A stretch of DNA of 64,000 nucleotides from positions 3,162 to 67,161 of IMG/VR virus record IMGVR_UViG_3300014205_000184, one strand, 5' to 3'. Made by a program: the position numbers and the translations under genes. The notes beneath the pieces are model-generated. The model saw nothing but the letters and a program-made list of their open reading frames with translations. It made no database searches and was not told the origin of the DNA. Shown here piece after piece: positions 329-44,916 of this stretch (positions are counted from its first letter, which is position 1; every line of letters starts with the position of its first letter). This DNA comes from a virus (taxonomy: Duplodnaviria; Heunggongvirae; Uroviricota; Caudoviricetes).

Positions 329-1142
329 TAACTACACAAACTGCATTTTTTATAAGCCATTAAGAAAAGATTTAGTTCTCATACAGTACCCGTGTAACTA
401 ATGGGTGAAAAAAAAGAGCTTTCCCAGGAATACACTTTTTTTTGGGGGTTGCTAGTTATGATATAAGGATGAGAACTAAATTATATCCTAATGGTTTATA
501 AATTTTAAAGTTTATCTAGTTAAAAACGGTCGGAATTGTTAACACTTTAAATATCTTACTTTTTATTCTTCCTTTCCAAAAGTGCGTTTTTTCGTTCTAC
601 AGTCGGAGAGCGTTTTTCTTTAAATGCAACTTAGCCCAAATCTAACTTTTTGACGCTCTCCACACAGGATGGAACCTTACTACTTTACTGTAAATTGAGC
701 AAGCGGTTATACCCTCCCAAACTCCTATACTATATACCTTATCCTATTATATATATATTACTATACCCATCTACCTTAATCTTTCACCGCTAACGCCCGA
801 GACACGAGTATCAAGTATCAAGTATCAAGTACTAAGCACCGCACCTCAACTGTCTACCCTCAAGCACCCTTTATCTTTTACCGATACACTACCACTTTAC
901 TAGTCTTTCACTCTCTAACTAGAGAGTAATCCGTTACTGTCTACTTAGACAGCAACACGGCGTGTCATTCTACACTCGCGCCTCGTGCGTAGGAATATGA
1001 AGCGTTTCCGAGAGACACGAGTATCGAGGCTCGCCTGTTCATTTTCGACTTTTACCCTCAAATTTCAATCCTTGTGTGGCCCAGCTCTAAAATTACTTTT
1101 GTTTGAGCTAAAAAAGAAGGTGAAGATAGTTCACCTAGACGC

Positions 1143-5102: not shown

Positions 5103-5109
5103 CAAAGCA

Positions 5110-5359
5110 ATAACTGATGGCGTTCACGTAGAAAACGCAAACTATAATGCAAAGGGCAAGCGTTTTACTGATAGATTGAAATTACCGGAGAATTCGGAAG
5201 CTACGAGATAACAAAGTTGCTTAGCAATACGGAGTTATCTTGCCGAACGTGAAATGTGTGATATGACGTAACCGTAGAATTAGATACAAGACCCTACGGA
5301 AAACAATCACACCGTTCTATCGAGAAGCCCTGTTGAGAGTTCGATTCTCTCCAGTTGTT
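5110..5359 (+). ncRNA. tRNA-like / tmRNA-like structured RNA (paralog of the element at 32590-32825)
   Basis: Canonical T-arm GAGAG-TTCGATT-CTCTC at 5335-5351. A 7-bp acceptor pairing joins ATAACTG (5110-5116) to CAGTTGT (5352-5358). A D-arm-like hairpin GCGTT-N9-AACGC follows the 5' strand. The roughly 190-nt internal region is rich in stems. Both strands are non-coding. Confidence 0.5.
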
Positions 5360-5382
5360 GTTCATATAACAAGGAGTTTATA

Positions 5383-5715
5383 ATGAGAAAAGTACAATGT
5401 AATTGGTGTGAAAGTATATTTTACGAAGAAAAGATTACGCTTGATGGTGAAACTGAACATTGCCCAATTTGCAAGATAAGCGGGTATTTAATGGATATAC
5501 GAGATAATAAAAAAATATATCTTGAACCGAGTATGTTACCGCCTAAAAGAGGCTTTGTTTTAACAGGCGAGAAACGAGAACCGAAGAAAGATGAGTGGTA
5601 TTTGAGTGGAGCGATACCCGAGGCGTATCAAGCGTTTAATGATTTAAGTGAAAAGTATTTAATATTAAGAATGGTGAATATAAAGTATGTACCAGGGCAT
5701 TATGAATTAGCTTAA
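5383..5715 (+). CDS. Hypothetical zinc-ribbon protein
   Basis: RBS AAGGAG. Carries CNWC...CPIC. Confidence 0.55.
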   Translation: MRKVQCNWCESIFYEEKITLDGETEHCPICKISGYLMDIRDNKKIYLEPSMLPPKRGFVLTGEKREPKKDEWYLSGAIPEAYQAFNDLSEKYLILRMVNIKYVPGHYELA

Positions 5716-17526: not shown

Positions 17527-17535
17527 TTAAAGTTC

Positions 17536-17564
17536 TTTACAAAATAACATTTTCGTGATATAAT
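17536..17564 (+). promoter_or_regulatory. Sigma-A-type promoter (TTTACA-N17-TATAAT with extended TG)
   Basis: TTTACA at 17536-17541, TG at 17556-17557, and TATAAT at 17559-17564. Confidence 0.5.
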
Positions 17565-17594
17565 GTATCTATAAGTGAAAGAAGAAATATGTCT

Positions 17595-31442: not shown

Positions 31443-32579
31443 ATGAGAGATGAAGATTCAAGCGTAAAAGGTATTGTGATTCTAGTAGGTATTGTTTGTG
31501 CGATTGTGCTTTGTTGTGTATTGTTATTTGGTGGATTTTTTGCTTTTGTTTCATTAAAAGGTAATGAAGTCGCAGTTGTTCAGAATTGGCAAGGTGTTAA
31601 AAATGAAATTCTCGTTTCCGGAATGCACTTCTATAATAACTTTATAGATGATGTATTTGTGTATGACATAGGAACGCAGAAAATTACATTTGATGAAATG
31701 AACACAAAATCAGTAGACTATAATCCTGATGCAGAATACCCACGTATACTTATGGATATAGGTGAAAATGGTGGTCAGAAAGTTACTGTTGGGATGTCTG
31801 TAAATTATCATCTTAACCCTGCTAAAATAGTTACGTTGCATAAGCAGGGTATTGGCAAGACGTATGAATCAGTTGTTCTTAAGAGAGAAATAATAGATGT
31901 GGTTAACGAAATTGCACGTCCTCGTAATGCATTAGAGATATACTCTGGGTCTGGATTTGTGAAATTTAAAATGGATGTTGAAAAAGCTCTTGAAAGCAAC
32001 CCTGTTCTTAAAGACAGAGGACTTGAAATAGAGAATACGATTATCTACAAAATTCATTTAGACCCACAGTATGAAAATGAAATAGCGCAGAAACAGATAG
32101 CACAGCAACAGGCTTTGAGAAAACAGGAAGAAACAAAAGCGGCGCAAGAAGAAGCTAAGAAGATATTTGCGCAAGGACAGTCAGTTGTTGAGAAAGCTAG
32201 ACAGGAAGCAGAAGCGTCTAAGGTATCACAAATAACTAACGCTGAGGCTAATGCAAGACAAGAAGTTCTTAAAGCGGAAGCTGAAAAAGCAAAGCGAGTG
32301 CTTGAAGCTGAAGGTAATAGAGATGCTAATTTAGCAAATGCTTCAGGTGTTCTTGCTTTAGGAAAAGCGGAAGCAGAAGTAGCTACATTAAAACGTGATG
32401 CTTTATACGCCGGTGAATCTGGGTCACGTAAAGCATCAGTTGAAATAGCTGGGTTGCAAGCTGAGAAGTTAAAAGGTATGTTGAATGGGTGTAGCGTAAT
32501 TTCAGAAAAAGCGTTGTATAATATGGGTAAAGCTACGGGTATGTATACCGTAAGTGTTGATGATAAGAAAACAGAATAA
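31443..32579 (+). CDS. SPFH/band-7 (stomatin/prohibitin/HflKC-like) membrane protein with a long C-terminal coiled coil
   Basis: N-terminal TM IVILVGIVCAIVLCCVLLFGGFFAF. The SPFH core is GNEVAVVQNWQGVKNEILVSGMHFYNNFIDDVFVYD. An Ala/Glu/Lys-rich coiled coil follows. Confidence 0.6.
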   Translation: MRDEDSSVKGIVILVGIVCAIVLCCVLLFGGFFAFVSLKGNEVAVVQNWQGVKNEILVSGMHFYNNFIDDVFVYDIGTQKITFDEMNTKSVDYNPDAEYPRILMDIGENGGQKVTVGMSVNYHLNPAKIVTLHKQGIGKTYESVVLKREIIDVVNEIARPRNALEIYSGSGFVKFKMDVEKALESNPVLKDRGLEIENTIIYKIHLDPQYENEIAQKQIAQQQALRKQEETKAAQEEAKKIFAQGQSVVEKARQEAEASKVSQITNAEANARQEVLKAEAEKAKRVLEAEGNRDANLANASGVLALGKAEAEVATLKRDALYAGESGSRKASVEIAGLQAEKLKGMLNGCSVISEKALYNMGKATGMYTVSVDDKKTE

Positions 32580-32589
32580 ATAATTTATA

Positions 32590-32825
32590 GTAGTTGTGGC
32601 GTTGCATGGTGAAAACGCTGAGTTTTCGTATTTTCAATTGTATAGACAGCGTGTGTGTAGGCTGACAATCACCGATAACACAAGCAGGGCGAGGGTCTTA
32701 AACATTGTGACCATTAAAACACTGCCCATATAAATCATCATATGGGGATTCATCTCAAAGATGAGCGAGAGGGTTGGGTAGCTCAAAAAACTCTATACTA
32801 AAGCAGGTTCAAATCCTGCCAACTA
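32590..32825 (+). ncRNA. tRNA-like / tmRNA-like structured RNA (paralog of the element at 5110-5359)
   Basis: T-arm GCAGG-TTCAAAT-CCTGC at 32801-32817. A perfect 7-bp acceptor joins GTAGTTG (32590-32596) to CAACTAC (32818-32824). The D-like hairpin GCGTT-gcatggtga-AACGC lies at 32599-32618. An anticodon-stem-like helix joins GAGTTTT (32620-32626) to AAAACTC (32785-32791), enclosing about 160 nt. Confidence 0.5.
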
Positions 32826-32847
32826 CTATTTTTATAAAAGGAAAAAC

Positions 32848-33540
32848 ATGAGTTTAAAAAAATCACATGGGAACATGTATGACTGGGTGACACATATGCA
32901 TAGTCATTTAGGTGGTAAATGCCCACATGAATGTTCATATTGCTATGTACAAAAGAATAGATTTGGTGTTAGTGAACGCTATCAAGGTGATGTTCGTTTT
33001 TTAGATAACGAACTTAAAGTTAATTATGGTGTTGGTAATACCATATTTATTGAACACATGAATGATATGTTCGCTAAAGAAATTAAAGATGAATGGATAA
33101 TGAAGATATTAGAGCATTGTAATAAGTATAGAAACCAATATGTGTTTCAAACAAAAAATCCAATGAGAGCGAATAAGTTTATAGACTTATTCCCTAAGAA
33201 GTATCTTTTTGGTACAACAATTGAAACTAACAGAGATGTTGATGTTAGTAAAGCCCCAAAACCAATTGATAGATATAATGGTATGATGTCTTATAAACAT
33301 AAAACAGATACGTTTATAACACTAGAGCCTATATTGGACTTTGATGTAGATATTTTGTCAAAGTGGATTATAGATATAAAACCATTATTTATCAATATTG
33401 GAGCTGACAGCAAGAAATGTGGGTTAAAAGAACCTTCTGCGGATAAGATAAAAGAATTAGTTAATATCTTGCAGAAGAATGATATAGTAATAAAGAAAAA
33501 GGTTAATTTAGAAAGGATATATGAAAATACTTCAGACTAG
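32848..33540 (+). CDS. DUF5131 (phage Gp37/Gp68 family)-like protein, second paralog, with a CxxxCxxC cluster
   Basis: Carries GGKCPHECSYCYV plus TIFIEHMNDMFAKEIKDEWIMKILEHCNKYRNQYVFQTKNP, which is collinear with the 27751 paralog. Confidence 0.5.
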   Translation: MSLKKSHGNMYDWVTHMHSHLGGKCPHECSYCYVQKNRFGVSERYQGDVRFLDNELKVNYGVGNTIFIEHMNDMFAKEIKDEWIMKILEHCNKYRNQYVFQTKNPMRANKFIDLFPKKYLFGTTIETNRDVDVSKAPKPIDRYNGMMSYKHKTDTFITLEPILDFDVDILSKWIIDIKPLFINIGADSKKCGLKEPSADKIKELVNILQKNDIVIKKKVNLERIYENTSD

Positions 33541-34204
33541 ACGTGGGATAACAGAGATTAGAAATCTATTAAATTATCTTTCAGATAAAGACGCATTTAT
33601 CTGTGGTGGGTACGTGAGATATTGCGCATCACCATTAAAGAATCCAGTTGAAGCTACTGATGTTGATGTATATTGTAAAGATGAGGAAACGTTTGAGGTT
33701 CTTAAAAAGCATTTTGCTAATGTTGGTCTTGAGATAAGATATGAGAATCACATGGCTTTAACATATAAAGCTATGAAAGATGATGGGATATATTCGTATC
33801 ATCCACCTATACAGCTTATAAAACCCGTTAAAGAGGGCGCAATAGTAGCTAACGGCGATATGGGGAGTATACTTGAGAACTTCGATTTTACAGTAATACG
33901 ATGTGGACTGATTAATGCAGATAATGCTATGGTAGATGATGATTTTGAAGAAGATGAAAAGAATAAATTCTTAAGGATTAAGAATATACATTGTCCAATA
34001 TCGTCTACGTTACGTTTCATGAAGTATGCGAGAAAAGGGTATTTCACAAGACCAATGCAAGTTGTTAAATTGTTTTTAGATTGGGATGGTAGAACACCCG
34101 AGTATCGAGCGAAATTAATTGAAGGGTTGAACACTTCGGCGAGTGGTAAAGAAATGACACGGGAAGAGATTGATGAGCTAGAAGCATTATTGAGAATAGA
34201 TTAA
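33521..34204 (+). CDS. Minimal nucleotidyltransferase (pol-beta superfamily)
   Basis: Carries FICGGYVRY...ATDVDVYC, the G[GS]-x(9-13)-D-x-[DE] motif. Confidence 0.5.
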   Translation: MKILQTRRGITEIRNLLNYLSDKDAFICGGYVRYCASPLKNPVEATDVDVYCKDEETFEVLKKHFANVGLEIRYENHMALTYKAMKDDGIYSYHPPIQLIKPVKEGAIVANGDMGSILENFDFTVIRCGLINADNAMVDDDFEEDEKNKFLRIKNIHCPISSTLRFMKYARKGYFTRPMQVVKLFLDWDGRTPEYRAKLIEGLNTSASGKEMTREEIDELEALLRID

Positions 34205-34414
34205 AGTTTCGCCGTGGGTGACCCCCTGAGAATACGTTAAAGCGTAAAAGCTGGTGAAGTTTAATTTCGAGTTAAACTTAAGCTAGCCGTTACTCTTGCA
34301 TGTCAATGCCGGCGTTCGATAAGGTCTTTGCAACACTCATCAAAGACATAAAAGAAAAGGATGAGGACGGGTTAGCGGGAACGTATAAAAACCGCACCAT
34401 TAAGAAAGGTAATT

Positions 34415-35386
34415 ATGATAGAAAAACAAATGGCTGAAGAACGTAGAATATTAGAGATAATATCCGGTTCATATTTATATGGAACGCAGACTGAAACCTC
34501 TGACAAAGATTTTGTCGGAATTTTTATTCCAGACGTAGAGCATATTTTAGGATTTCAAAAATGTGAAGAAGTTGACCTATCGGTGATTGAGAAAGATTCA
34601 AGCGGTAAGAATACAGTTAATGCAGTAGACAGAAAATTTTATGAATTCAGGAAATTTATTAAACTAGCAATGGAGAACAACCCTAATATTCTTGAAATAT
34701 TGTTTGTGAATAAAGAGGACACGTTGTTTGTGAATGATTTCGGAAAAGAACTGTTAGAAATGCGTCATATGTTTCCGTATAGAGGTCTAAAAGCTAAGTT
34801 TTTAGGGTATGCGTTCAGTCAAAAGCATAAAATGGTTATTAAAAAAGATAACTATTTTAATCTTATGCTTGCATATGACTTCCTAAAGAAACAAGATAGT
34901 AGGAAGTTTCTATTAGAAGTAGTATTATCATCAATGCGACCTAATTTTATAACATTTGGGCATGATGAAGCGCATAATATAAAGAACGTTATTATAGGTG
35001 ATTTACAATTACCACCATCAAAAACAGTTCAAGAAACATTGAAAGTGTTAGAGTATCGAATGTCGAGTATCGGTAATCGTGAAGAGTTATTATTAAAATA
35101 CGGTTATGATGTGAAGTTCGGTTCCCACCTTGTGCGTCTTATGTTAGAAGGAATCGAGTTACTTAAAACTGGTGAATTAGTGTTTCCATTAAAAGAGCGT
35201 CAGATGATACTTGATATAAAGAATGGTAAGTGGGCGATGAGTAAAATATTAGATTTTAGTAATGAGTTAGAGAAAGAAATTGAAGATTTGGCAATAAGTT
35301 CTAAATTACCGAGTAGACCAAGAACTGATGAGTTAGAAGAGTTTGTTATAAATAAGTTATCTCAAATAGTAAAGGAGCGAGAATGA
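34415..35386 (+). CDS. Nucleotidyltransferase, RlaP-like (PF10127-type; RtcB-associated family)
   Basis: Carries ISGSYLYGTQTETSDKDFVGIF, the GS-x9-SDxD NTase motif. A roughly 300-aa helical remainder follows. Confidence 0.5.
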   Translation: MIEKQMAEERRILEIISGSYLYGTQTETSDKDFVGIFIPDVEHILGFQKCEEVDLSVIEKDSSGKNTVNAVDRKFYEFRKFIKLAMENNPNILEILFVNKEDTLFVNDFGKELLEMRHMFPYRGLKAKFLGYAFSQKHKMVIKKDNYFNLMLAYDFLKKQDSRKFLLEVVLSSMRPNFITFGHDEAHNIKNVIIGDLQLPPSKTVQETLKVLEYRMSSIGNREELLLKYGYDVKFGSHLVRLMLEGIELLKTGELVFPLKERQMILDIKNGKWAMSKILDFSNELEKEIEDLAISSKLPSRPRTDELEEFVINKLSQIVKERE

Positions 35387-35625
35387 TATCTTTAAAAATA
35401 ACCAAAAATGTTATGCACATAATAGCCGCAAGAATCTTAGGCGTTATATATATAACAGCATTATTTATATACTTAGCATGTTCAATAATATTAATATTGG
35501 ATAAAGAATGTTTTATTAAAGTCTTATTAGGGGTTTTAGTTTTTATACCAGTCATGAGAATGTTGTGTCATGACTTACCATTGTTTAAACAGTTTTGGAA
35601 AAACTGTTATAAGGAGATTTTATGA
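35383..35625 (+). CDS. Hypothetical membrane protein
   Basis: ATGA coupling. Two hydrophobic segments. Confidence 0.45.
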   Translation: MISLKITKNVMHIIAARILGVIYITALFIYLACSIILILDKECFIKVLLGVLVFIPVMRMLCHDLPLFKQFWKNCYKEIL

Positions 35626-35843
35626 GAATAAGAGTTGAAGAAGTGGTGAAATTTATTGTAGCTCTGATAATAGCTTTATCTGTATGTAAATTAGCTCATG
35701 CTGGTCTTGTAGATATGATGCAGAGAGAAGGGCAGACTAATCAATTAGAGTTAGATAATAAGCTTATGATTGAAAACAATAAATTATTGGAAGAGATACT
35801 GAGTGAATTAATAAAAATAAATAAAAATAGTAATAATATATGA
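35622..35843 (+). CDS. Hypothetical protein (N-terminal TM or signal anchor)
   Basis: ATGA coupling. 73 aa. Confidence 0.45.
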   Translation: MRIRVEEVVKFIVALIIALSVCKLAHAGLVDMMQREGQTNQLELDNKLMIENNKLLEEILSELIKINKNSNNI

Positions 35844-36517
35844 ACAAACGTCAGATACTTAGACAAGTTTTAAAAAAAAGATGTAAAAAGTGTCATTGTA
35901 TAATTGATGATAGAAATAAACGTGGTTTCTGTGTCAAACATACAAATTTTTCAAGAGAGAGAAATTCTTTTTGGGGGATGAAGCATAGTAAGAAAACAAA
36001 AAATATAATGAAGCAACATCATCAAGATTTTCACGGAGAAAACAATCCTTTTTTTGGTAAAAAGCATACTAGAAAATCTATTAATAAAATGCGAAAATCA
36101 CATAAGAGTAACTGGTTAAAGTATGATACTAAAAAAAGAAATAAAATATTATATAATCTTATTACATCTAGTAGAAAAACAAGAGGAACTAAAATAGAAA
36201 AAATTATATCAAATTTTTTAAATATTTTGAATATAAAACATAGAAGACATGTACAAATGGGATTATATAACGTTGATTTTTTAGTAGATAAAAAATTTAT
36301 TATAGAATGTTTTGGTGATTATTGGCATTTTAATCCAAAATTTTTCAATTCAAATAATAAAATTAAAAATAAGCATAAGAAAGATAAGATTAAAAAAGAA
36401 ATACTAATAAAGAAAGGGTATAAATATCTTGTGTTATGGGAATATGATATTAATAATCAATTTGATGTCGTAAGAAATAAAATAAGGAGTTTTTTAAATG
36501 TTAAAAATACTATCTGA
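35840..36517 (+). CDS. Free-standing homing-endonuclease-like protein (NUMOD3 DNA-binding repeats plus a Vsr/DUF559-like PD-(D/E)xK nuclease)
   Basis: Carries FWGMKHSKKTKNIMKQ and FFGKKHTRKSINKMRKS (NUMOD3). C-terminal LYNVDFLVDKKFIIECFGDYWH is the DUF559/Vsr-type D...E.K core. Confidence 0.55.
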   Translation: MNKRQILRQVLKKRCKKCHCIIDDRNKRGFCVKHTNFSRERNSFWGMKHSKKTKNIMKQHHQDFHGENNPFFGKKHTRKSINKMRKSHKSNWLKYDTKKRNKILYNLITSSRKTRGTKIEKIISNFLNILNIKHRRHVQMGLYNVDFLVDKKFIIECFGDYWHFNPKFFNSNNKIKNKHKKDKIKKEILIKKGYKYLVLWEYDINNQFDVVRNKIRSFLNVKNTI

Positions 36518-37805
36518 GAATCTAAGAATCCCGATAAAATTATGGATAAGCAATATAGAAAACGGAGCCTTGGAACAAGCATGTAACTCTGCAAATCTAC
36601 CTTTTGCATTTCATCATATTTCAATAATGCCCGACGCTCATCAGGGTTATGGCGTTCCAATTGGGTCAGTTTTAGCGACAGATAGAGTAGTAATTCCAAA
36701 CGCAGTGGGTGTGGATATAGGTTGTGGAATGTGTGCAGTAAAGACTTCACTAAAAGCTGAACAACTAGATAAAGAAACTTTAAAGACAATAATGGGCAAG
36801 ATACGAGAAGCGATACCCGTAGGTAACGATAAAGATGGTAGACACGCTAAGAAACAAGATGAAAGTTTAATGCCTGTTCCTAAAAATTTAGGAGAATATA
36901 TTACAACAGAAAATCTCTTAATAAGAGATTATCCGATAGTATCTCAACAGTACGAATCAGCATTAACACAAATTGGCACTCTGGGCGGCGGCAATCATTT
37001 CATCGAAATACAAAAAGATAAAGAAGATAATGTTTGGATAATGATACATTCAGGGAGTAGAAATTTAGGGCATAAAGTAGCAACGCATTATAATGAGTTA
37101 GCAATTAAATTAAATCGTATGTGGTGTTCATGTGTTCCTACGGAATGGGAATTAGCATTTCTTCCAATAGAAACAGAAGAAGCTAAAAGTTATATGCGTG
37201 AAATGCAATATTGTGTGGATTTTGCGTTAGCTAATAGAAGTTTAATGATGGATAGAATAATAGATGTATTTGAACAAATTTTAATAGGTTTTGGACAAAA
37301 TCAAGTCCAAAATATTATATTTTCTAAAGCTATAAACATAGCTCATAACTACGCATCTTGGGAAAATCATTTTGGGAAGAATGTAATTGTTCATCGTAAG
37401 GGTGCTACATTAGCAAGAAAAGATACTATAGGTATTATACCGGGCTCACAAGGCACGAAGAGCTATATCGTTAAAGGTCTAGGTAATGTCGATAGTTTTA
37501 TGTCGTGTAGTCATGGTGCAGGACGTCTTATGAGCAGAACAAAAGCATGTAATGAATTAAATTTAGAAGATGAGATAAAGAAGCTTGACGACCAAGGAAT
37601 TGTTCATGGTATAAGAACTAAGAATGATTTAGATGAGGCGAGTGGTGCGTATAAAGATATAGGCGAAGTAATGAATAACCAAGTTGATTTAGTGGAAATA
37701 ATAACTGAGCTTCAACCATTAGCTGTTATTAAAGCTACAACTAATAAGGTTACCACGAAGGATGTTTTAGAATATTCAAAATCTATAAGTAATTTTTTAA
37801 AATAA
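36498..37805 (+). CDS. rtcB: RtcB RNA 3'-phosphate/2',3'-cyclic phosphate ligase
   Basis: RBS AAGGAG. Carries MPDAHQGYGVPIGSV, VGVDIGCGMCAV, and GTLGGGNHFIEIQ...IHSGSRNLGHKVATHY. Confidence 0.75.
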   Translation: MLKILSENLRIPIKLWISNIENGALEQACNSANLPFAFHHISIMPDAHQGYGVPIGSVLATDRVVIPNAVGVDIGCGMCAVKTSLKAEQLDKETLKTIMGKIREAIPVGNDKDGRHAKKQDESLMPVPKNLGEYITTENLLIRDYPIVSQQYESALTQIGTLGGGNHFIEIQKDKEDNVWIMIHSGSRNLGHKVATHYNELAIKLNRMWCSCVPTEWELAFLPIETEEAKSYMREMQYCVDFALANRSLMMDRIIDVFEQILIGFGQNQVQNIIFSKAINIAHNYASWENHFGKNVIVHRKGATLARKDTIGIIPGSQGTKSYIVKGLGNVDSFMSCSHGAGRLMSRTKACNELNLEDEIKKLDDQGIVHGIRTKNDLDEASGAYKDIGEVMNNQVDLVEIITELQPLAVIKATTNKVTTKDVLEYSKSISNFLK

Positions 37806-37806
37806 T

Positions 37807-37930
37807 TTAACTCTCTGTCTCGCTAGGAGTGTTTCTTAGTAGAGATATAAACTTAGGCGAGAATCGCCTCTCGATGGGCATACTGATACAATCCTGCCAC
37901 CTAAGTGCTGAAGGGATTGCAGAGAGTTAA
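37807..37930 (+). other. Structured intergenic element immediately downstream of rtcB, closed by an 11-bp long-range stem (candidate ncRNA)
   Basis: TTAACTCTCTG (37807-37817) pairs with CAGAGAGTTAA (37920-37930). Internal hairpins include GGCGA-gaa-TCGCC. Further stems (GTGAG...CTCAC, CCGA...TCGG) continue to 38030. The 250-nt gap has no ORF. Confidence 0.4.
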
Positions 37931-38055
37931 AGTTTCCAGTAGCACCGCAAGGGAAGGCTCTTGTCTAGACTACTAGTGTGTTGACCGAGCATGAATGGGA
38001 AGTGAGAGCACCTCACATCGGTCCCGTATTTAAAACAAGAAAGATGAGGTGAATT

Positions 38056-38532
38056 ATGGAGATTAAGATTGAACTTAACAAAGATGAAATGTTGAAGTTA
38101 TGTGAGAAAGATAAAAACTTTCAAGTCTATATTCAACAAGCGGCGCTTAATTATTTAAGAAACTGTAAGTTAAAACCGTTAATGAGAGATGAGATTGTGA
38201 GAGAGGTTGAGCAATATAAAAATGATTTAAAGAGGCATGTTAAAGAAATTCTTCCTCAAATGGGTATAACTCGCGGAAGTGGATGGAATAATAATTCGAT
38301 ATATCTAAGTGAAGAACTTGGGAGAGATATACGTGCAAAAATTATTCAAGAGATGGAATTTATAATAACTGATATTGTTAGTAAAGAATTATCTAAAGTA
38401 TCAAAAAAAATGGACGAAGATATAAAAATGTGGAATTCTCATATAGAACGTAAATGTAAGGATAGTATAACATCTAAAACCATAGAAAACATAGCAAAGT
38501 CGGTTATAGAGGAAAAATTTAAAGGAAAATAA
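38056..38532 (+). CDS. Hypothetical protein
   Basis: RBS AAGATGAGGTG. 158 aa. Confidence 0.55.
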   Translation: MEIKIELNKDEMLKLCEKDKNFQVYIQQAALNYLRNCKLKPLMRDEIVREVEQYKNDLKRHVKEILPQMGITRGSGWNNNSIYLSEELGRDIRAKIIQEMEFIITDIVSKELSKVSKKMDEDIKMWNSHIERKCKDSITSKTIENIAKSVIEEKFKGK

Positions 38533-38533
38533 T

Positions 38534-39547
38534 ATGAATTGTGCTGAAATATGTTTTGAAGTTGCAAAGATAATACCCGAATCTTTTTTGGTAGGTGGAG
38601 CTGTACGAGATACACTGCTCAATAAAGAACCAAAAGATTTTGATTTTGCGACGCCTCTATCCCCAGATGAAATAGAAACCGCTATACAGAATTCTGGTAG
38701 ACATGCGTACTCAATCGGAAAACGTTTCGGGACTGTGGGAGTTAAAATAAACGGAATTATGGTTGAAATAACAACGTTTCGTTCTGAGAAATATGAAGAA
38801 GGAAATCGTAAACCACAAGTTGAGTTTGTGAAAGATATAAACTCTGACTTATCTAGACGGGACTTTACCATAAACGCTATGGCTAGAACAGTCCTACCCG
38901 AAAGAGAGTTCATAGACTTGTTTAATGGGCAAGAGGATATGAAGAATAAGGTTATACGATGCGTTGGGAAGCCCAAGGACAGATTTAAAGAAGACCCGTT
39001 ACGTATGCTTCGAGTAGCACGTTTCATGTCCCAATTAGAGTTTGAGGTACATCCAGACACAGAGGAAACAGCGTTTGAGATGAGTTATAAGATATTAGAA
39101 GTAAGTAAAGAGAGATGGTGTCTTGAGTTAGATAAGCTACTTATGACATTAAAACCTAGTTTAGGGCTTGATTTTATGATGAGAACAAGACTTATGAACT
39201 TTATGATACCAGAACTATCTTTACAGTATAGCTATAATCAAAACTCCCCGTATCATAGCCGTGATTTGTGGGAGCATACGAAATATGTTGTAGATAATGT
39301 AGGATGTGATATAATGTTACGTTGGGCGGCACTCTTGCATGATATAGCGAAACCTTTTGTTAGATATGATAACAACAAGGGGTATAGCAATTACCTCAAA
39401 CATGACATGTTAGGTAAAGAAATGGTTATACGTCTTGCGTATTATCTTAAATGGTCAAATGAACGGCGTGAAGTAGTGAGTAATTTGGTGTTAAATCATA
39501 TGCTAGACACATCGCCGCTTAAAGAAGCTGATGAGAAAGGGAAATAA
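38534..39547 (+). CDS. cca: CCA-adding tRNA nucleotidyltransferase (class II) with a C-terminal HD domain
   Basis: Carries LVGGAVRDTLLNKEPKDFDFAT, RRDFTINAMA, and the HD motif AALLHDIAKPF. Confidence 0.7.
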   Translation: MNCAEICFEVAKIIPESFLVGGAVRDTLLNKEPKDFDFATPLSPDEIETAIQNSGRHAYSIGKRFGTVGVKINGIMVEITTFRSEKYEEGNRKPQVEFVKDINSDLSRRDFTINAMARTVLPEREFIDLFNGQEDMKNKVIRCVGKPKDRFKEDPLRMLRVARFMSQLEFEVHPDTEETAFEMSYKILEVSKERWCLELDKLLMTLKPSLGLDFMMRTRLMNFMIPELSLQYSYNQNSPYHSRDLWEHTKYVVDNVGCDIMLRWAALLHDIAKPFVRYDNNKGYSNYLKHDMLGKEMVIRLAYYLKWSNERREVVSNLVLNHMLDTSPLKEADEKGK

Positions 39548-39915
39548 TGAAAGTAAAAATAAAGCACGAAAATATTCTTAGAGCGATTGATTATCTTGAG
39601 AGGATAGGGTGGTTAATAAAAGGAGAAGATGCTCTAGAAGATAAAAAAGCTGTTAAAGAATTTGCGAAAGCTGTGGCTATAGCGTCTATAGACATAGAAG
39701 TAGATATAGATATGATAGGTATTATTAAAAAGGAGATTGACATGAGACCCAAAAAGAAACGGTCAGACCACACTTGTGGGGAATGTTCGTATAGAGATTT
39801 GGGGACAGATACGCATTACGTGTGTCACAATAATCTAATTAAGAAGTTGGCGGGTAGAAATGTTGTGAGAGTAAACAAAAATAGAAATCATTGCGTAGCG
39901 TTTAAGAGTAAGTAA
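39547..39915 (+). CDS. Hypothetical protein (C-terminal CGEC...C.H zinc-binding-like)
   Basis: TAATG coupling. 122 aa. Confidence 0.5.
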   Translation: MKVKIKHENILRAIDYLERIGWLIKGEDALEDKKAVKEFAKAVAIASIDIEVDIDMIGIIKKEIDMRPKKKRSDHTCGECSYRDLGTDTHYVCHNNLIKKLAGRNVVRVNKNRNHCVAFKSK

Positions 39916-39925
39916 AGGAGAGAGA

Positions 39926-40543
39926 ATGAAGATAATAAAACCAAGCGTTGAGTTACTTTGGGCAACACCCAATGCTATTGAAGCAATTGAAAGAGCCGGG
40001 AGAACGTGCTATAAGTCAGAAGATAAAATTACTGAGGATAGCGCAAATAAGTTTGTGGAGATGTTAATAAAGCGTGGTCATGAAGCTATGATAGAACATG
40101 CTTCGGCTTCATTGTTGTTTGTTTGTGATAGAGGTGTAACACATGAAATAGTACGACACAGGATGGCAAGTTACGCACAAGAAAGCACCAGATACTGTTC
40201 TTACGCTAGTGCAAAATTTGGAAGTGAAATAACGGTGATTGAACCACCAGATTTAACAATGCCTCAGTATGAAGTTTGGGAAGCTAGTATGAATGAGAGC
40301 GAACAATCATATTTAGATTTAATTAAATTAGGAGTTACTCCGCAAATAGCAAGAGGTGTTTTACCTAATAGTCTTAAAACAGAGATTGTTGTTACAGCTA
40401 ACTTTAGAGAGTGGAGACATATATTTAAGTTACGAACAGCGAAAACAGCTCATCCTCAAATGAGGGAAGTAATGAATATAGCGTTTGATATGTTAGTTAA
40501 AGAATTCCCGATTGTATTCGCTGATTTAAAACAGGAGATATAA
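39926..40543 (+). CDS. thyX: Flavin-dependent thymidylate synthase (ThyX-like)
   Basis: Carries the ThyX signature VRHRMASYAQESTRY (RHR-x7-S). Confidence 0.65.
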   Translation: MKIIKPSVELLWATPNAIEAIERAGRTCYKSEDKITEDSANKFVEMLIKRGHEAMIEHASASLLFVCDRGVTHEIVRHRMASYAQESTRYCSYASAKFGSEITVIEPPDLTMPQYEVWEASMNESEQSYLDLIKLGVTPQIARGVLPNSLKTEIVVTANFREWRHIFKLRTAKTAHPQMREVMNIAFDMLVKEFPIVFADLKQEI

Positions 40544-40709
40544 TGGAAATTATAATTGATGAACCGCAAATAAAAGAAGCGATACTTTGTTATTTAATAA
40601 CAAAAGGATACCCATTTGGTGATGGGGTTTATTCTCCCAATGATATAAAAATGGTTGTGAGTCAAGTTGATTATAGGGTTTCAGCAGAAATTGAGGTGAA
40701 AGATAAATG
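40544..40709 (+). CDS. Hypothetical small protein
   Basis: TAATG coupling. 54 aa. Confidence 0.4.
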
Positions 40710-41408
40710 AAACATTTCGTGATAGGCGATATACACGGCGGTTATAAATCTATGATGCAGTGTTTTGAACGAGCAAAGTTTAACTATGAAGAAGACGAAC
40801 TTATCGTTCTAGGAGACGTTGTAGATGGATGGCCTGATACGTATAAATGCGTAGAAGAACTTCTTAAAGTTAAAAACCTAATATTAATATTAGGTAACCA
40901 CGACGCTTGGGCATTAGAGTGGTTTTTATATTCTGATGCTCCTTCACTTTGGACTGGGCAAGGCGGTTGGGCGACGATACATTCATATAACAATGCGGAG
41001 AATATATGTGTTCCACAATCGCATATAGACTTTTTCAGAAACGCTGTTTACGCTTATGTAGATGATAAGACAAATACACTGTTCGTTCATGGCGGTATCG
41101 ATTGCGATAAAGATATAACAGAACAGTCAACGGAACGAATGATGTGGGATAGAGAGTTACTTGAATGCGCATATTGGAGACATAAAGAAAATCCTAAATA
41201 TAAGTTCTCTAAGTATAATGAAATATATGTTGGGCACACAACAACGTTCTATTTTCAAACAGATAAACCTATGTTCGTGTGTAATGTCATAGGCGCCGAC
41301 ACGGGCGGGGGCTACGAGGGATATCTTACGATAATAGACCGAGACACGAAACAATACTGGCAATCGGACAAGTTAGATTCACTATACCCAGGTGTAAAAG
41401 GGAGATAA
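40707..41408 (+). CDS. PPP-family Ser/Thr phosphatase / ApaH-like metallophosphoesterase
   Basis: Carries GDIHGGY, GDVVDGWPD, and GNHDAW, the GDxHG...GDxVDRG...GNHE motifs. Confidence 0.65.
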   Translation: MKHFVIGDIHGGYKSMMQCFERAKFNYEEDELIVLGDVVDGWPDTYKCVEELLKVKNLILILGNHDAWALEWFLYSDAPSLWTGQGGWATIHSYNNAENICVPQSHIDFFRNAVYAYVDDKTNTLFVHGGIDCDKDITEQSTERMMWDRELLECAYWRHKENPKYKFSKYNEIYVGHTTTFYFQTDKPMFVCNVIGADTGGGYEGYLTIIDRDTKQYWQSDKLDSLYPGVKGR

Positions 41409-41409
41409 T

Positions 41410-41619
41410 ATGAATTGTTTGCTGATTAAAAAATGGATATTATGTAATATATATGATAGACATGCATGGATGCATCTTGGAGCGAGGACTTTATACGGAG
41501 AACGTATAGAAGAGTGCCCATGGTGTAAACGTATGAGATATGATGTTGATGATAAAAAGCGTGAAAAGTTTAGAGAAGAACTATATAGTAAATTAAAAGA
41601 AATGTGGAGTAAGAAATGA
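41410..41619 (+). CDS. Hypothetical protein
   Basis: TAATATG coupling. 69 aa. Carries CPWCK. Confidence 0.45.
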   Translation: MNCLLIKKWILCNIYDRHAWMHLGARTLYGERIEECPWCKRMRYDVDDKKREKFREELYSKLKEMWSKK

Positions 41620-41759
41620 AACATAATTTTACATCTTTATATGATATGCGCCATTTCGCAGAGGATAAGTTGGACCATCCTGGAGACCGACTTAAGTTTT
41701 TTGGATGGACGGAGACATTCGGCTCTACATCTGGTCCGTGTGGTGGTTATGGTGGCTAA
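41616..41759 (+). CDS. Hypothetical small protein
   Basis: ATGA coupling. 47 aa. Confidence 0.35.
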   Translation: MKHNFTSLYDMRHFAEDKLDHPGDRLKFFGWTETFGSTSGPCGGYGG

Positions 41760-41762
41760 ACT

Positions 41763-41888
41763 ATGACAGAGTTTGACGTAATTGCGTTTCTTGACCCGTT
41801 CACTCACAATGTCGTTATGTTTTGTTCTGATGAATGGAAGATTGTAAGAGGTGTGAAACCATCTAAAATACTAAGGTGGAATTTATGA
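41763..41888 (+). CDS. Hypothetical small protein
   Basis: 41 aa. ATGA-coupled to the next gene. Confidence 0.3.
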   Translation: MTEFDVIAFLDPFTHNVVMFCSDEWKIVRGVKPSKILRWNL

Positions 41889-42046
41889 AACACTTCTCTA
41901 AAAAAGATATGAAAGCAATAAAAAAGATGTTAGACAAACGACTAAAGTGTAAACATGGAGAATACTACGGGGATTTTAATGGAGTTAGATGTAAGAAATG
42001 CGGAGTTAGAATTTCAGATAATACAATAAAATTTGAGGGGTTTTAA
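41885..42046 (+). CDS. Hypothetical small zinc-ribbon protein
   Basis: Carries CKHGEY...CKKCG. 53 aa. Confidence 0.4.
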   Translation: MKHFSKKDMKAIKKMLDKRLKCKHGEYYGDFNGVRCKKCGVRISDNTIKFEGF

Positions 42047-42337
42047 ATGGAAAATACAAACAAAAGTATTTATTTATTAAAAGAACTAGAAAATGTTGTA
42101 AGAAAATCAATGAAAAGTCAATCTTCAATGTTCCTTAGCGATGAAACAGCTATGGATTATGTTCGAGTAGATGGGTTGCTTGATTTTGAAGTGATTGCAC
42201 GGACAATATATGACTTTTATATCGCTAGAGGCGTGAGATTAATGAAAGATATGTCCGTAAAAAGTATTTATTTTGATGTTGATAAAAATGATATATATAC
42301 AAGTGGTTATAATCAAGCTATGGTAGATATAAATTAA
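42047..42337 (+). CDS. Hypothetical protein
   Basis: TAAATG coupling. 96 aa. Confidence 0.5.
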   Translation: MENTNKSIYLLKELENVVRKSMKSQSSMFLSDETAMDYVRVDGLLDFEVIARTIYDFYIARGVRLMKDMSVKSIYFDVDKNDIYTSGYNQAMVDIN

Positions 42338-42352
42338 AACTATAAGGTAATT

Positions 42353-42673
42353 ATGAAAAAAGATAAAATTAGAAAAAGAACTCTAGATGAAGCGGAAAAT
42401 ATTATTAAAGACTTACAACAAAAACTTTGGGCAAGAGATAAGGTATTAAGTAATATGCGAATGGCTTTATATTATGCAAAAAAGTTTTTGAAAGAAGTTG
42501 AATGCGAGTTAGATGGTATGTGGTATCACGGTATAGATGGTTCTGATTTACTTGTTTCTAAAGACGAATTATTTGACACTGTGCAGAATAAAATAATAAC
42601 GGCAAAATTAGTCCGAGGGATGAATGTAATAGATAAACCATTATTAGAACTTAAACAGTTTATAGGATGGTGA
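42353..42673 (+). CDS. Hypothetical protein
   Basis: 106 aa. Confidence 0.5.
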   Translation: MKKDKIRKRTLDEAENIIKDLQQKLWARDKVLSNMRMALYYAKKFLKEVECELDGMWYHGIDGSDLLVSKDELFDTVQNKIITAKLVRGMNVIDKPLLELKQFIGW

Positions 42674-42677
42674 TAAA

Positions 42678-43055
42678 ATGATACCTACGCAGTATGAGAC
42701 AAATGAGTGCATAGAAGAAGTAGAGATACGTTGTCCTACTTGTCATAGCAATAATACGCAATTAGATGATAAAGCTGATTCTAATGATATTAGAGAATGG
42801 TATTTATGTTTAGAGTGTGGAACGGTTTTCATAAATAACCATGATGACAATATTAAATGTTGTAAAATGAGCAATAGAATAGATTACGCTATTAACCAAC
42901 TAGAAATAAAGGGCAATGGTTCAAACACGGCTATACAGTTAGCTATCGCCGCATTAATGGTAATGAAAGATATGGAAAATAACCCAGACATAAGTACGAT
43001 TGATGGAAAGTTTTGGATTGATAAGTTCAATTCATATATAAAAGGGGATAAATGA
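42678..43055 (+). CDS. Zinc-ribbon protein whose C-terminal domain is paralogous to the 43462 gene
   Basis: Carries CPTCHS...CLECG. The C-terminus ends ...DKFNSYIKGDK. Confidence 0.5.
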   Translation: MIPTQYETNECIEEVEIRCPTCHSNNTQLDDKADSNDIREWYLCLECGTVFINNHDDNIKCCKMSNRIDYAINQLEIKGNGSNTAIQLAIAALMVMKDMENNPDISTIDGKFWIDKFNSYIKGDK

Positions 43056-43270
43056 AAATATCAGATGCTAGAAAATTATGTAAAAAAATGTTAGATGATA
43101 GAGAATTGTCTAAAGATGGATTAGCAAAACAGGAAAGACGAGATAAAGTTGGACTACACTTTTATGTAATACAAGAAATACGTCATGCAGGGTATGCAAA
43201 GTTTACTAGTTATGATGGAGATACAGTAGCTTGCCCTAAACATACTAGCGTAAGAAGAATAGTGGTGTAA
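43052..43270 (+). CDS. Hypothetical protein
   Basis: ATGA coupling. 72 aa. Confidence 0.5.
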   Translation: MKISDARKLCKKMLDDRELSKDGLAKQERRDKVGLHFYVIQEIRHAGYAKFTSYDGDTVACPKHTSVRRIVV

Positions 43271-43298
43271 TAACCACAGATTGTAATTATGATAAAAA

Positions 43299-43436
43299 AT
43301 GGAATATTATATTGTGATTTTTGTGAACAAGAGATGGGCAAAGCACTTGAGATAAAAGAATATCCCGATGGTATATTCTGTTCAGATGAATGTCGTTATG
43401 AATTTGAAACGGGCCATCCCGGAGAAGAATACTAAC
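43299..43436 (+). CDS. Hypothetical small zinc-ribbon protein
   Basis: Carries CDFCEQ...CSDECR. 45 aa. Confidence 0.35.
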
Positions 43437-43461
43437 TGAAATCAGAGAGGAAAGAGCGAGT

Positions 43462-43668
43462 ATGAATAAAATTGAAAGCGCAGTAAAGTTTTTCTCAACA
43501 TATCCATTTTTTATTGGTAATGATGATGTTGGTGGAACTGCTCTTGCGGCGTTGATGATTATAGAAGATATAGAAAAGCAAAAAGATAATATAAGTGGAG
43601 GACATTTCGATTTAAATAGTAAAGAGATTCTTGATAAATTCAATTCATATATGAAAGGAGATAAGTAA
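43462..43668 (+). CDS. Hypothetical protein (paralog of the C-terminal domain of the 42678 gene)
   Basis: Shares TALAALMIIEDIE... and ends ...DKFNSYMKGDK. Confidence 0.45.
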   Translation: MNKIESAVKFFSTYPFFIGNDDVGGTALAALMIIEDIEKQKDNISGGHFDLNSKEILDKFNSYMKGDK

Positions 43669-43925
43669 TGAGTACCGAGTATCGAGTTCCAGATGAAATA
43701 AAGCGTGTCCCGAAGTTATGTATGGACTGTGTGTGGTCAGAAGTTGATTCTTTAGGAAATTGGAGTCAAAAATGTTTTAACCCCAAAGTTGTTATGAAAG
43801 ACCATTGGGCTTTAGCGCATAATCGTGGTGGTCAACCTTATGGCTCTGATTGTAGTGAAGAACGAAGCAAGTTACTTTTTGCTCCGTGTGGACAAAAAGG
43901 CAAACTTTGGGAGAAACGACCATAA
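43668..43925 (+). CDS. Hypothetical protein
   Basis: TAATG coupling. 85 aa. Confidence 0.5.
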   Translation: MSTEYRVPDEIKRVPKLCMDCVWSEVDSLGNWSQKCFNPKVVMKDHWALAHNRGGQPYGSDCSEERSKLLFAPCGQKGKLWEKRP

Positions 43926-43936
43926 GGAGTTATAAC

Positions 43937-44185
43937 ATGGGCATGTTCGATAGTATATATTTTAACTGTACTTGCGGTGAAGAGTTAGAAGCTCAAAGTA
44001 AGAGTGGAGATTGTTGCCTTAACTGTTATCCTAATACATCAGTACCAATAAGTGTTGCTATAGACGCTAATAGACATTCTCCGTATAAGTGCAAGTGTGG
44101 TAAAGAGTGGGAGTTTGATGAAAGTGTAATTCCTAAACAAAATATGCATATTAATCTACCAATTAAAGAGGTTGTATGCGAATAA
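43937..44185 (+). CDS. Hypothetical zinc-ribbon protein
   Basis: RBS AAGGAG. Carries CTCGEE...CLNC...CKCGKE. Confidence 0.5.
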   Translation: MGMFDSIYFNCTCGEELEAQSKSGDCCLNCYPNTSVPISVAIDANRHSPYKCKCGKEWEFDESVIPKQNMHINLPIKEVVCE

Positions 44186-44335
44186 AAATATGGGGGACTG
44201 AAGGGATATTATATAGAAGTCTTGCTGTTGTCGTGTACTTCTTAGCTCCATTGCTTATTTGGATATATTTAATTGCAGAATGGTTATATAAAAAATCTAA
44301 AATAAGATACTTATTAAAGAAATTCAAAGGAAAAC

Positions 44336-44476
44336 ATGTTAGGTAAAAGTTTAATGTATCTTTTATTAGCGCAGTATGTTATAATAACGATTGTGTTCAT
44401 ATGTGAAAGACAATGGAATAAAGTATTATATTGGGTAGGTGCGGGAATGATACAATGGTCAGTAATTAAAATGTAG
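44336..44476 (+). CDS. Hypothetical small membrane peptide
   Basis: 46 aa with a hydrophobic core. Confidence 0.3.
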   Translation: MLGKSLMYLLLAQYVIITIVFICERQWNKVLYWVGAGMIQWSVIKM

Positions 44477-44485
44477 AAAGGAGTT

Positions 44486-44914
44486 ATGCAAACATTTCTT
44501 CCATATAAAAATTTCAATAAAACAGCTCGTTGCTTAGATTATCGTAGACTAGGAAAACAGCGTGTTGAGGCATGGCAAATATATCAAGCTATTAACGGTC
44601 AATCCGGGTGGCGTAATCATCCAATAGTTAAAATGTGGAGCAAATATAAAAATGCGTTATTGATTTATGGTATGACAATGTGCATTGAGTGGAGTAACCG
44701 TGGTTATGAAGACAACATGTATAGTAGATTTCACCACGAACTAATGCGAAATCTTGAAATTTGTAAAGAACGAGTTGAATTTCCTAAATGGATGTATAAA
44801 AATAAGTTCATAAGAAGTCACAGAAGTAATCTTTTGAGAAAAAATAAAGAGTATTATAGTAAGTTTAAGTGGGTCGTACCCGATAACTTACCATATTACT
44901 GGGAAAGGAGTTAA
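44486..44914 (+). CDS. Conserved hypothetical protein
   Basis: RBS AAAGGAG. 142 aa. The N-terminus is MQTFLPYKNFNKTARCLDYRRLGKQRVEAWQI. Confidence 0.55.
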   Translation: MQTFLPYKNFNKTARCLDYRRLGKQRVEAWQIYQAINGQSGWRNHPIVKMWSKYKNALLIYGMTMCIEWSNRGYEDNMYSRFHHELMRNLEICKERVEFPKWMYKNKFIRSHRSNLLRKNKEYYSKFKWVVPDNLPYYWERS

Positions 44915-44916
44915 TC

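Follow-up and report, generated by a model that had tools for sequence, protein, structure and literature searches.

Two tRNA-like elements of a tailed phage belong to a virus-restricted family of putative non-coding RNAs with variable inserts in place of the anticodon arm

What kind of RNA, if any, is encoded by an intergenic stretch whose two ends resemble a tRNA and whose middle does not? Here we address this question for two such elements, el1 and el2, of a tailed phage (Caudoviricetes; IMG/VR record IMGVR_UViG_3300014205_000184, positions 3,162 to 67,161); this whole stretch of 64,000 nt is referred to as the window. An initial annotation had described el1 as a paralogue of el2 and had argued that two copies with conserved ends and divergent interiors represent a genuine RNA gene family. 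This claim was borne out by more than 100 instances, by covariation in the acceptor and T stems, and by the calls that ARAGORN makes on chimeric sequences. The elements are best explained as putative genes of a phage-specific family of tRNA-derived non-coding RNAs (ncRNAs). Mimicry of tRNA by ncRNAs is known from a handful of systems, namely tmRNA, Y RNAs, viral 3' tRNA-like structures and mascRNA, and the family described here is, in our reading, a new variant among them.

The coordinates of both elements and of the genes around el2 are listed in Table 1. The 7-bp end stem with one G·U pair, the GGCGTT hairpin and the perfect T arm reported earlier for el1 are all present. The seven canonical pairs are formed by ATAACTG (5110-5116) and CAGTTGT (5352-5358), with a U-G pair at position 2, but the true closing helix is longer and comprises 11 bp in el1 (5106-5116 with 5352-5362, including U-G and G-U pairs) and 10 bp in el2. 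The hairpin had been said to follow the 5' strand immediately; in el1, a 2-nt linker (AT, 5117-5118) lies between them. In el2, whose core element spans positions 32590-32826 of the + strand, all seven canonical acceptor pairs are Watson-Crick pairs and U8 is located at 32597, directly before the D arm. The D stem of el1 has the same sequence as that of el2 and of all family members. The GG doublet in the D loop of el2 and most relatives is missing from that of el1 (CACGUAGAA), so that the elbow of el1 may be weaker.

The interior of el1 contains local hairpins (AGATAAC/GTTATCT, CCGTAG/CTACGG and CCGGA/TTCGG) and no anticodon stem-loop. The minimum free energy (MFE) fold recovers the first two of these stems, which the initial annotation had pointed out, together with the closing stem, the D-like hairpin and the T arm; the MFE fold of el2 recovers the closing stem and the T arm. 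Taken alone, the folding energies of the whole elements are unexceptional (z -1.5 and -1.7 for el1 and el2). Each element is followed by a ribosome-binding site (RBS) and a start codon, which belong to the ORF at 5383-5715 in the case of el1 (RBS AAGGAG) and to the DUF5131 gene (ATG at 32848) in the case of el2.

Table 1. Positions of the parts of el1 and el2 and of the genes in and beyond the el2 island (numbering of the window).
Feature	Position	Strand	Details
el1, 5' strand of closing (acceptor-like) helix	5106-5116	+	7 canonical positions (5110-5116) and 4 paired leader bases
el1, D arm	5119-5138	+	GGCGTT / loop CACGTAGAA / AACGC; stem formed in MFE fold
el1, variable interior	5139-5334	+	196 nt, in place of anticodon arm and variable loop
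el1, T arm	5335-5351	+	GAGAG-TTCGATT-CTCTC; abuts 3' strand
el1, 3' strand of closing helix	5352-5362	+	CAGTTGT and TGTT; no CCA after
el2, 5' strand of closing helix	32587-32596	+	ATA and GTAGTTG; 10 bp with 32820-32829
el2, D arm	32598-32619	+	GGCGTT / GCATGGTGAA / AACGC(T); GG doublet in loop
el2, variable interior	32620-32802	+	starts with GAG, ends with CTAAA (family consensus); several hairpins
el2, T arm	32803-32819	+	GCAGG-TTCAAAT-CCTGC, the family consensus T arm
el2, 3' strand of closing helix	32820-32829	+	CAACTAC and TAT; no CCA after
Band_7	31443-32579		el2 island
DUF5131	32848-33540		el2 island, directly downstream of el2
Gad2-family nucleotidyltransferase	33521-34204		el2 island
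RlaP	34415-35386		el2 island
Homing endonuclease			el2 island; between RlaP and RtcB in the order listed
RtcB	36498-37805		el2 island
CCA-adding enzyme	38534-39547		further downstream of el2 island
RNA ligase	44917-45789		further downstream of el2 island

The two elements are the only ones of their kind in the window. The D-arm pattern GGCGTT-N7-11-AACGC occurs exactly twice (0.01 expected), and when both strands were searched for T arms with 7-bp closure within 600 nt, el1 and el2 were the only loci returned; the shared layout that had been ascribed to el2 was confirmed at 32590-32826, the sole other locus in the 64 kb. The copies agree in their D stems but differ in their closing stems and T arms, and their interiors are unrelated. 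The consensus structure with covariation that had been anticipated for them holds for the tRNA-like core, but the interiors of el1 and el2 have no structure in common, a property found throughout the family. ARAGORN predicted neither a tRNA nor a tmRNA when run on the window and on four member loci, and Rfam 15 reported nothing in the window at gathering thresholds. When the window and 20 member loci were searched at gathering and permissive thresholds, the elements were matched by T-arm fragments at most; in the window, a weak, fragmentary tRNA match at permissive thresholds was confined to the T hairpin of el2.

The IMG/VR database was scanned with the shared D-arm sequence, and the matches were filtered for a T arm and closure. 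The initial scan yielded four further elements of 106-157 nt, and more specific patterns added others. Pattern scans of viral and metagenomic contigs gave a family of 104 instances of 85-249 nt, which represent 80 distinct sequences. The exact 20-mer GGCGTTCTGGYGAAAACGCT has 116 occurrences in the metagenome contigs of JGI and only four in 185,579 bacterial and archaeal species genomes (one genome each), of which three are in G+C-rich sequence without an adjoining element and one is cut at the edge of a short contig. Among 50,697 isolated phage genomes, the matches listed included none to the D arm, the family core matched only the T arms of real tRNAs, and blastn searches with the el1 and el2 regions gave no match. 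The family is widespread in viral and metagenomic contigs and restricted to viral sequences. No description of it was found in the searchable literature and no match in Rfam 15, and it is apparently undescribed so far; among the 10,006 candidate viral structured RNAs of one survey, tRNA-like ones are mentioned solely at overlaps with ARAGORN predictions (PMC10690425).

Strict closure (7 of 7 pairs) directly after a T arm with 5 of 5 pairs was found for 50 of the 94 distinct D-arm hits with enough flanking sequence, compared with 1.9% when the 5' strands were swapped between loci; most of the apparent failures do belong to the family but have a stem of 8 bp or are shifted by 1 nt. A generic scanner that did not use the D-arm sequence returned 74 matches in 2.4 Mb versus a single one in reversed sequence, and its matches outside the family are ordinary tRNAs. 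Some relatives have degenerate T loops (L127 and L271).

The family was defined by a closing helix of about 9-11 bp, U8, the D arm GGCGUU-loop-AACGC(U), a variable insert, an A-rich tetranucleotide that remains of the variable loop, and a T arm that abuts the 3' strand. According to position-wise counts, the consensus has a G7-C66 pair, U8, the D arm followed by U, and the tetranucleotide (C)AAA before a T arm close to GCAGG-UUCRAAU-CCUGC; the base after the stem is variable across the family, and CCA is not encoded. All features of the definition are present in el2. The anatomy of el1 departs from that of the family at three points: it has AU in place of U8, A in place of the junction U that follows the D arm, and CUGUU in place of the A-rich tetranucleotide.

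In the core alignment of 59 members, 98% of the cells are paired, compared with 76% after shuffling and 41-48% when the partners were slid; this percentage is partly a matter of construction because members were selected for pairing, and the fair test of closure is the swap of 5' strands. Changes on both sides were found in 13 of the 18 pairs, including all seven acceptor pairs and all five T-stem pairs. The G-U pairs are confined to the + strand reading and would be C-A mismatches on the opposite strand, which suggests that the RNA is read from the + strand, also the strand of all flanking genes.

The D stem, by comparison, is near-invariant across the family. Its apparent invariance is inflated by the retrieval of members via the D-arm sequence but is not due to ascertainment alone: in a scan with three free positions per side (six in total), the true members had GCG/CGC, with one compensatory GUG/CAC and one mismatched variant. 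Most matches of this degenerate scan represented a conserved protein-coding motif (GTGGGGATCTGGTGAAAATCC) and were discarded. Such a D stem suggests, as has been argued for YrlA, a sequence-specific partner.

The conserved core amounts to the body of a tRNA that lacks the anticodon arm. When the interior was replaced by the 17-nt anticodon arm of Escherichia coli tRNA-Phe, ARAGORN called 79 of 79 sequences tRNAs, el1 and el2 among them; in native form, only the three shortest of the 79 were called, as poor class-II-like tRNAs. The elbow features of canonical tRNAs (G18 G19 and a UUCRANY T loop) are present in el2 and in the consensus, and partly in el1. Pairing in the canonical register of an anticodon arm, with its 5-bp stem and 7-nt loop at positions 27-43, is at chance level among the members, hairpins resembling an anticodon stem-loop are not enriched (6 of 79 members; 5.1 expected), and there is neither a fixed helix that closes the interior nor a pair of flanking anticodon-stem halves. 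Since they have no anticodon arm, the family RNAs cannot decode codons.

A further departure from tRNA concerns the closing stem, which in most members is extended by 2-4 bp (mode 3) beyond position 1/72. Only 7 of 78 members have no such leader-trailer extension, versus 59% expected, and the real tRNAs in the same loci have 0-1 extra pairs and in many cases encode CCA. As the helix runs past 1/72, the nucleotide at the discriminator position, which varies among members, is paired. With an extended helix and no encoded CCA, the standard maturation by RNase P, RNase Z and CCA addition and a subsequent aminoacylation are not assured, and the elements may stay embedded in mRNA. The tRNA-like aminoacylation and processing implied by the initial annotation are weakened by the same two features, the paired discriminator position and the lack of CCA, and by the lack of consistent identity elements. 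Characteristic of tRNA-Sec are an 8/5 acceptor/T geometry, a 6-bp D stem, a UCA anticodon and a long variable arm. In the family, a D stem of 6 bp (G-U, G-C, C-G, G-C, U-A, U-A) is possible and a few members have 8-bp acceptors; the anticodon arm is absent, and the tRNA-Sec match of one member is weak (24.5 bits versus a gathering score of 47). These Sec-like features may reflect a class-II or Sec-like ancestor but are not enough to assign the family to that class.

The inserts that occupy the place of the anticodon arm are 32-196 nt long and are structured (mean folding z -1.21; 87% of the values negative). For an interior type with four members, an explicit cloverleaf-compatible structure is 96.5% paired and has one internal helix with two compensatory pairs; this explicit count replaced an RNAalifold prediction for four related members that broke the D arm. 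Enrichment of pseudoknots in the interiors is weak, and no reading frame or motif is conserved across them. The 80 interiors fall into 68 sequence clusters, and their distribution over the scaffolds is not fixed. The closing-stem sequence UGCCCUG carries eight interior types, four interior types are found with differing stems, and the loci L291 and L143 have two copies each with identical scaffolds and flanks and unrelated interiors. The inserts are exchanged modularly between scaffolds, and it is plausible that the D arm, which is invariant, and the T arm, which is nearly so, act with their length of about 20 nt each as homology handles for this exchange. The interior of el1 has no sequence relative among the 80 family interiors. 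Both elements are 100% identical in the four public samples that carry the phage of the window (exact-protein look-ups), so these samples hold no covariation information on the interiors; as neither of the two interiors has relatives, the folds given above for them are not backed by covariation.

The elements are wedged between ORFs of the same strand, about 5-20 nt past a stop codon and about 20 nt ahead of a start codon. The proteins encoded on either side of family members do not cluster, and no conserved neighbour or partner protein was found; the idea of a cis-regulatory leader linked to a conserved neighbouring gene was dropped for this reason. With about three real tRNAs in 480 kb of member flanks, membership in tRNA arrays was likewise rejected. 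Convincing promoters or terminators specific to el1 or el2 are lacking.

The genes next to el2 form an island of RNA-repair and anti-defence genes (Table 1), and in jumbo phages, such islands have been interpreted as serving tRNA repair and counter-defence (PMC7824862); the biochemistry of RlaP has been described (PMC12776372). In an unrelated 175-kb phage contig, a DUF5131 gene with 61% identity is preceded by a related element (L127, 3598-3753) whose D stem is identical and whose T loop is degenerate, and two further tRNA-like elements are found nearby. This contig is an exception, and relatives of DUF5131 mostly lack an element. Most family members are not near repair genes. No useful relatives were found for the neighbour gene of el1 and for Band_7, and the phage of the window has no close cultured relative.

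Five readings of the family were ranked. We hold with moderate confidence that the RNAs act in trans, as tRNA-scaffolded ncRNAs used in host takeover or counter-defence; a cis-acting element, a Y-RNA-like scaffold, a working adaptor and sequence without function follow in this order of decreasing probability. Under the trans-acting reading, el1 and el2 would be transcribed from the + strand within a polycistronic message, given that no promoter or terminator of their own is evident. The D and T loops would lock into a tRNA elbow, and the resulting L-shaped body could be recognised by tRNA-handling proteins. The outcome would be a nuclease-resistant, stable and possibly excised RNA, in effect a natural version of the laboratory 'tRNA scaffold', with the variable insert as its effector part. 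In takeover or counter-defence, the RNA would most likely serve, by virtue of its tRNA shape, to decoy or tether proteins of the host or of the phage. We infer the trans action, the excision and the stability of the family RNAs from sequence features. A more elaborate proposal, which we consider quite doubtful, is that of a natural tRNA-scaffold expression system whose body would provide a chassis for folding, processing and stability and, in its invariant arms of roughly 20 nt, recombination handles by which a large repertoire of structured cargos is exchanged; these cargos would be RNA effectors of counter-defence or takeover, such as decoys, antitoxin mimics or sponges.

Second in rank, and possible though unlikely, is a role in cis, as a punctuation or stability element of the mRNA. 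The element would be a signal cut by RNase P, RNase Z or both, or a protective end; the interior would be largely a passenger, and the element would mark where the upstream message ends (3') and the downstream one begins (5'), for which the t-elements of plant mitochondria provide a documented precedent (PMC1920247). This would agree with the constant position of the elements on the coding strand in the narrow gaps between stop codon and RBS plus start codon, with the lack of evident promoters and terminators, of an encoded CCA and of a conserved partner gene, and with a conserved leader-trailer pairing that matters only in the precursor. The intergenic placement does not discriminate between the readings because ordinary phage tRNA genes are placed alike. 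A processing signal, however, needs neither a near-invariant D-stem sequence nor, given the compactness of phage genomes, an additional 30-190 nt of RNA; moreover, the interiors are structured beyond chance, show compensatory changes and are shuffled as modules among scaffolds. Still less probable is an RNP scaffold of the Y-RNA kind that operates with RNA-repair genes, its elbow bound by one protein and its variable module by another (compare YrlA or Yrn1 with Ro60 and PNPase). In its favour, the D- and T-stem sequences are conserved beyond the needs of tRNA folding, as in YrlA, the succession of closing stem, D, middle arm and T is the one described for Yrn1 of Deinococcus radiodurans, and el2 is located among RlaP and RtcB, typical neighbours in Ro60 operons; moreover, GCCGAACG in the el1 interior (5242-5249) fits the motif GNCGAAN0-1G, and CCGA-type words are mildly enriched in the interiors. 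Against it, Pfam scans of the 135 ORFs of the 64-kb window revealed no TROVE domain and hence no Ro60 gene, the Rfam Y-RNA models did not match the elements (none with YrlA, and a sub-threshold YrlB match elsewhere in one locus), most members are away from repair genes, and most, including el2, lack the motif.

A working adaptor RNA would be either a tmRNA-like rescue RNA or an intron-split tRNA that the RtcB ligase joins into a decoding tRNA. The tmRNA-like order of acceptor, D region, large middle and T arm, the RtcB and CCA-adding enzyme encoded nearby, GGGGCUG-type stems or a G3-U70 pair in a few members, and the class-II-like calls and the weak tRNA-Sec match mentioned above speak for such an RNA, which we nonetheless regard as very improbable. 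The ARAGORN searches of the window and the four member loci were negative, no more than 5 of the 59 members have G3-U70, and the discriminator varies among members and takes part in a base pair. A tmRNA with GGCGA... as resume codon was rejected on the negative ARAGORN tmRNA search, the lack of a conserved tag frame, and interiors too short to offer room for one. A tRNA split by a group I intron was rejected because interiors of 32-196 nt fall short of the at least about 200 nt needed for an intron with a P1-P9 core in an otherwise complete anticodon loop, Rfam gave no intron match, and anticodon-stem halves are missing; removal of the interior would yield a tRNA without an anticodon arm, since both exon parts have no anticodon stem-loop. 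The least probable reading of all is that of decaying tRNA pseudogenes or a chance likeness without function, with which the modest folding z of el1 and el2 and the degenerate T loops of L127 and L271 would agree. It is contradicted by the covariation: more than 100 instances in unrelated contigs keep every helix via compensatory changes. In addition, chance accounts for closure in about 2% of cases and for one match in the reversed control as opposed to 74 in the real 2.4 Mb, and the element is identical in four independent samples.

The elements define a large, virus-restricted family that has the body of a tRNA without the anticodon arm, an extended helix, a near-invariant D stem, and hypervariable inserts that are exchanged. 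Its members are rejected by tRNA finders, and as neither Rfam 15 nor isolated phage genomes contain the family, current annotation pipelines miss them. Should the inserts be effectors, as the trans-acting reading would have it, the family would represent a new layer in the conflict between phage and host and a precedent in nature for the expression of RNAs on a tRNA scaffold, and a true cargo scaffold would add an RNA arm to the anti-defence arsenal of phages. If the elements are processing signals only, they would extend the organellar principle of 'tRNA punctuation' to phages.

Among the known systems, tmRNA resembles the family in that its unpermuted ends form the acceptor helix, the T arm abuts the 3' strand, and a large structured domain, including pseudoknot-like folds, replaces the anticodon arm. 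The D loop of tmRNA, however, is reduced, whereas the family has a full D stem of 5-6 bp; the closing stem of the family comprises about 10 bp with a paired discriminator position, unlike that of tmRNA; and the middle domain is conserved in tmRNA but hypervariable in the family. At 3:70, where tmRNA has the alanine identity pair G3-U70, 5 of 59 members have a G-U pair, and el1 has U2-G71. The family has neither a tag ORF nor CCA, its interiors are as short as 32 nt, and the Rfam tmRNA model touches only the T arm of a single member.

YrlA and Yrn1 of D. radiodurans are likewise tRNA mimics in which the D and T arms form an elbow and the other module is variable. The D- and T-stem sequences of YrlA are conserved beyond structural need, and Y RNAs also occur in phages, next to RtcB-type repair genes (PMC4201824; bioRxiv 10.1101/312249). 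YrlA, however, is circularly permuted, with a loop-closed acceptor and ends in the Ro60-binding stem on the anticodon side, whereas the family RNAs end at the acceptor side; YrlA is also defined by its adjacency to Ro60, and no TROVE gene is present in the 64-kb window. The motif GNCGAAN0-1G, located near the 5' end in Y RNA, is found inside el1 and a few members and is absent from el2 and most others.

Species 1 RNA of phage T4 (rnaC), a phage ncRNA of about 140 nt, carries a canonical T arm (CCGGG-TTCGAAT-CCCGG) adjacent to its 3' end; its two ends form a weak stem, and its middle is structured. It differs from the family in that it has no D arm and an imperfect closing stem, is located at the end of the T4 tRNA cluster, and shows no sequence similarity. 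Species 1 and 2 RNAs of that cluster are annotated only as small, stable RNAs, and we know of no role assigned to either.

The t-elements of plant mitochondria and tRNA-like processing signals of the mascRNA type are tRNA-shaped, lie between genes in longer transcripts and are presumed substrates of RNase P or RNase Z (PMC1920247; for background, see bioRxiv 10.1101/312249). Both are roughly tRNA-sized and without a large insert, whereas the family has an invariant D stem, an extended helix and modular inserts; the plant t-elements match only the cis-acting reading. In the 'tRNA scaffold' of Ponchon and Dardel, the acceptor, D and T arms are reportedly kept and an RNA of interest replaces the anticodon arm, and the product is said to fold and to be stable in bacteria. 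This laboratory scaffold is the closest analogue in design, identical to that of the family; the one is an engineered construct, of which the other would be a natural counterpart.

RNA-repair and counter-defence genes are densely packed in an island of the window that includes genes for Band_7, DUF5131, a Gad2-family nucleotidyltransferase, RlaP, a NUMOD3/Vsr-type homing endonuclease, RtcB, a CCA-adding enzyme and an Rnl-type RNA ligase. Canonical tRNA genes are absent from the entire 64 kb. The intergenic gap immediately 3' of RtcB is predicted to form an unusually strong structure (MFE -76 kcal/mol, G + C content 45%), in which approximately 100 nt are enclosed by a closing stem of 12 bp or more (UUUAACUCUCUG...CAGAGAGUUAAA). 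The gap yielded no match in Rfam and may represent a further non-coding RNA of the repair island.

Two other structured gaps were observed. The ORF-free gap has the highest folding signal of the whole window. Within it, AGTATCA AGTATCA AGTATCA AGTACTA forms a short tandem repeat; the gap might serve as an origin or a regulatory region, or encode a large RNA. The shorter gap, which carries a GC-rich perfect 9-bp hairpin (UAGCCGCAG...CUGCGGCUA) and two more hairpins, probably serves as a terminator or a regulatory region. Separately, a single ORF joins a DNA methylase to an intein splicing domain and to a homing-endonuclease module of the HNH/HTH type, and looks like a methyltransferase interrupted by an intein.

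Coordinates of features in the window and in other viral or metagenomic contigs
Feature	Location	Size	Folding z
RNA-repair and counter-defence island	window 31443-45789		
Gap 3' of RtcB	window 37806-38055	250 nt	-3.1
ORF-free gap	window 329-984	656 nt	-5.4
Shorter structured gap	window 17527-17724	198 nt	-3.3
Intein-type ORF	window 23604-25439	611 aa	
GCCGAAYG in first tRNA-shaped element	window 5242-5249		
Additional tRNA-like elements	L127 5548-5625 and 7908-8034		
Family member with tRNA array	L235 529-942		

In a 175-kb phage contig (L127), two additional tRNA-like elements lie close to the gene for DUF5131. They share a common start (ATCAAGGCGGTGGTTG), and ARAGORN called neither. The closing stem of one is 11 bp long and is accompanied by a GGCGUA-UUGAA-UACGCC hairpin and a T-like loop of 6 nt; in the other, the D and T arms are normal and the closing stem is lacking. 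On the minus strand of locus L239, the 5' strand TCCATAG of a 102-nt element recurs, together with TGGCGG, 3 bases past that element, and this restart may represent a second copy in tandem with a divergent D arm. Approximately 330 nt beyond it lies a T arm closed by 7 bp (GTCTGGG...CCCAGAC).

The variable inserts that replace the anticodon arm in this family of tRNA-bodied phage RNAs are otherwise unrelated, with CCGA, ACCGA, AGCCGA, GAGUA and GCAAA among the words that are 2-4 times over-represented. GCCGAAYG, present in the first tRNA-shaped element of the window and in two other loci (L138 and L091), fits the Ro60-binding motif GNCGAAN0-1G. The sole clear instance of a family element within a tRNA array was found in L235 (identical in L247), where two genuine tRNAs (Rfam scores of 60.5 and 37.9 bits) lie downstream of a 242-nt member in the same orientation, separated by spacers approximately 10 nt long. 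This placement resembles that of phage T4 rnaC (species 1 RNA), located at the end of the T4 tRNA cluster.
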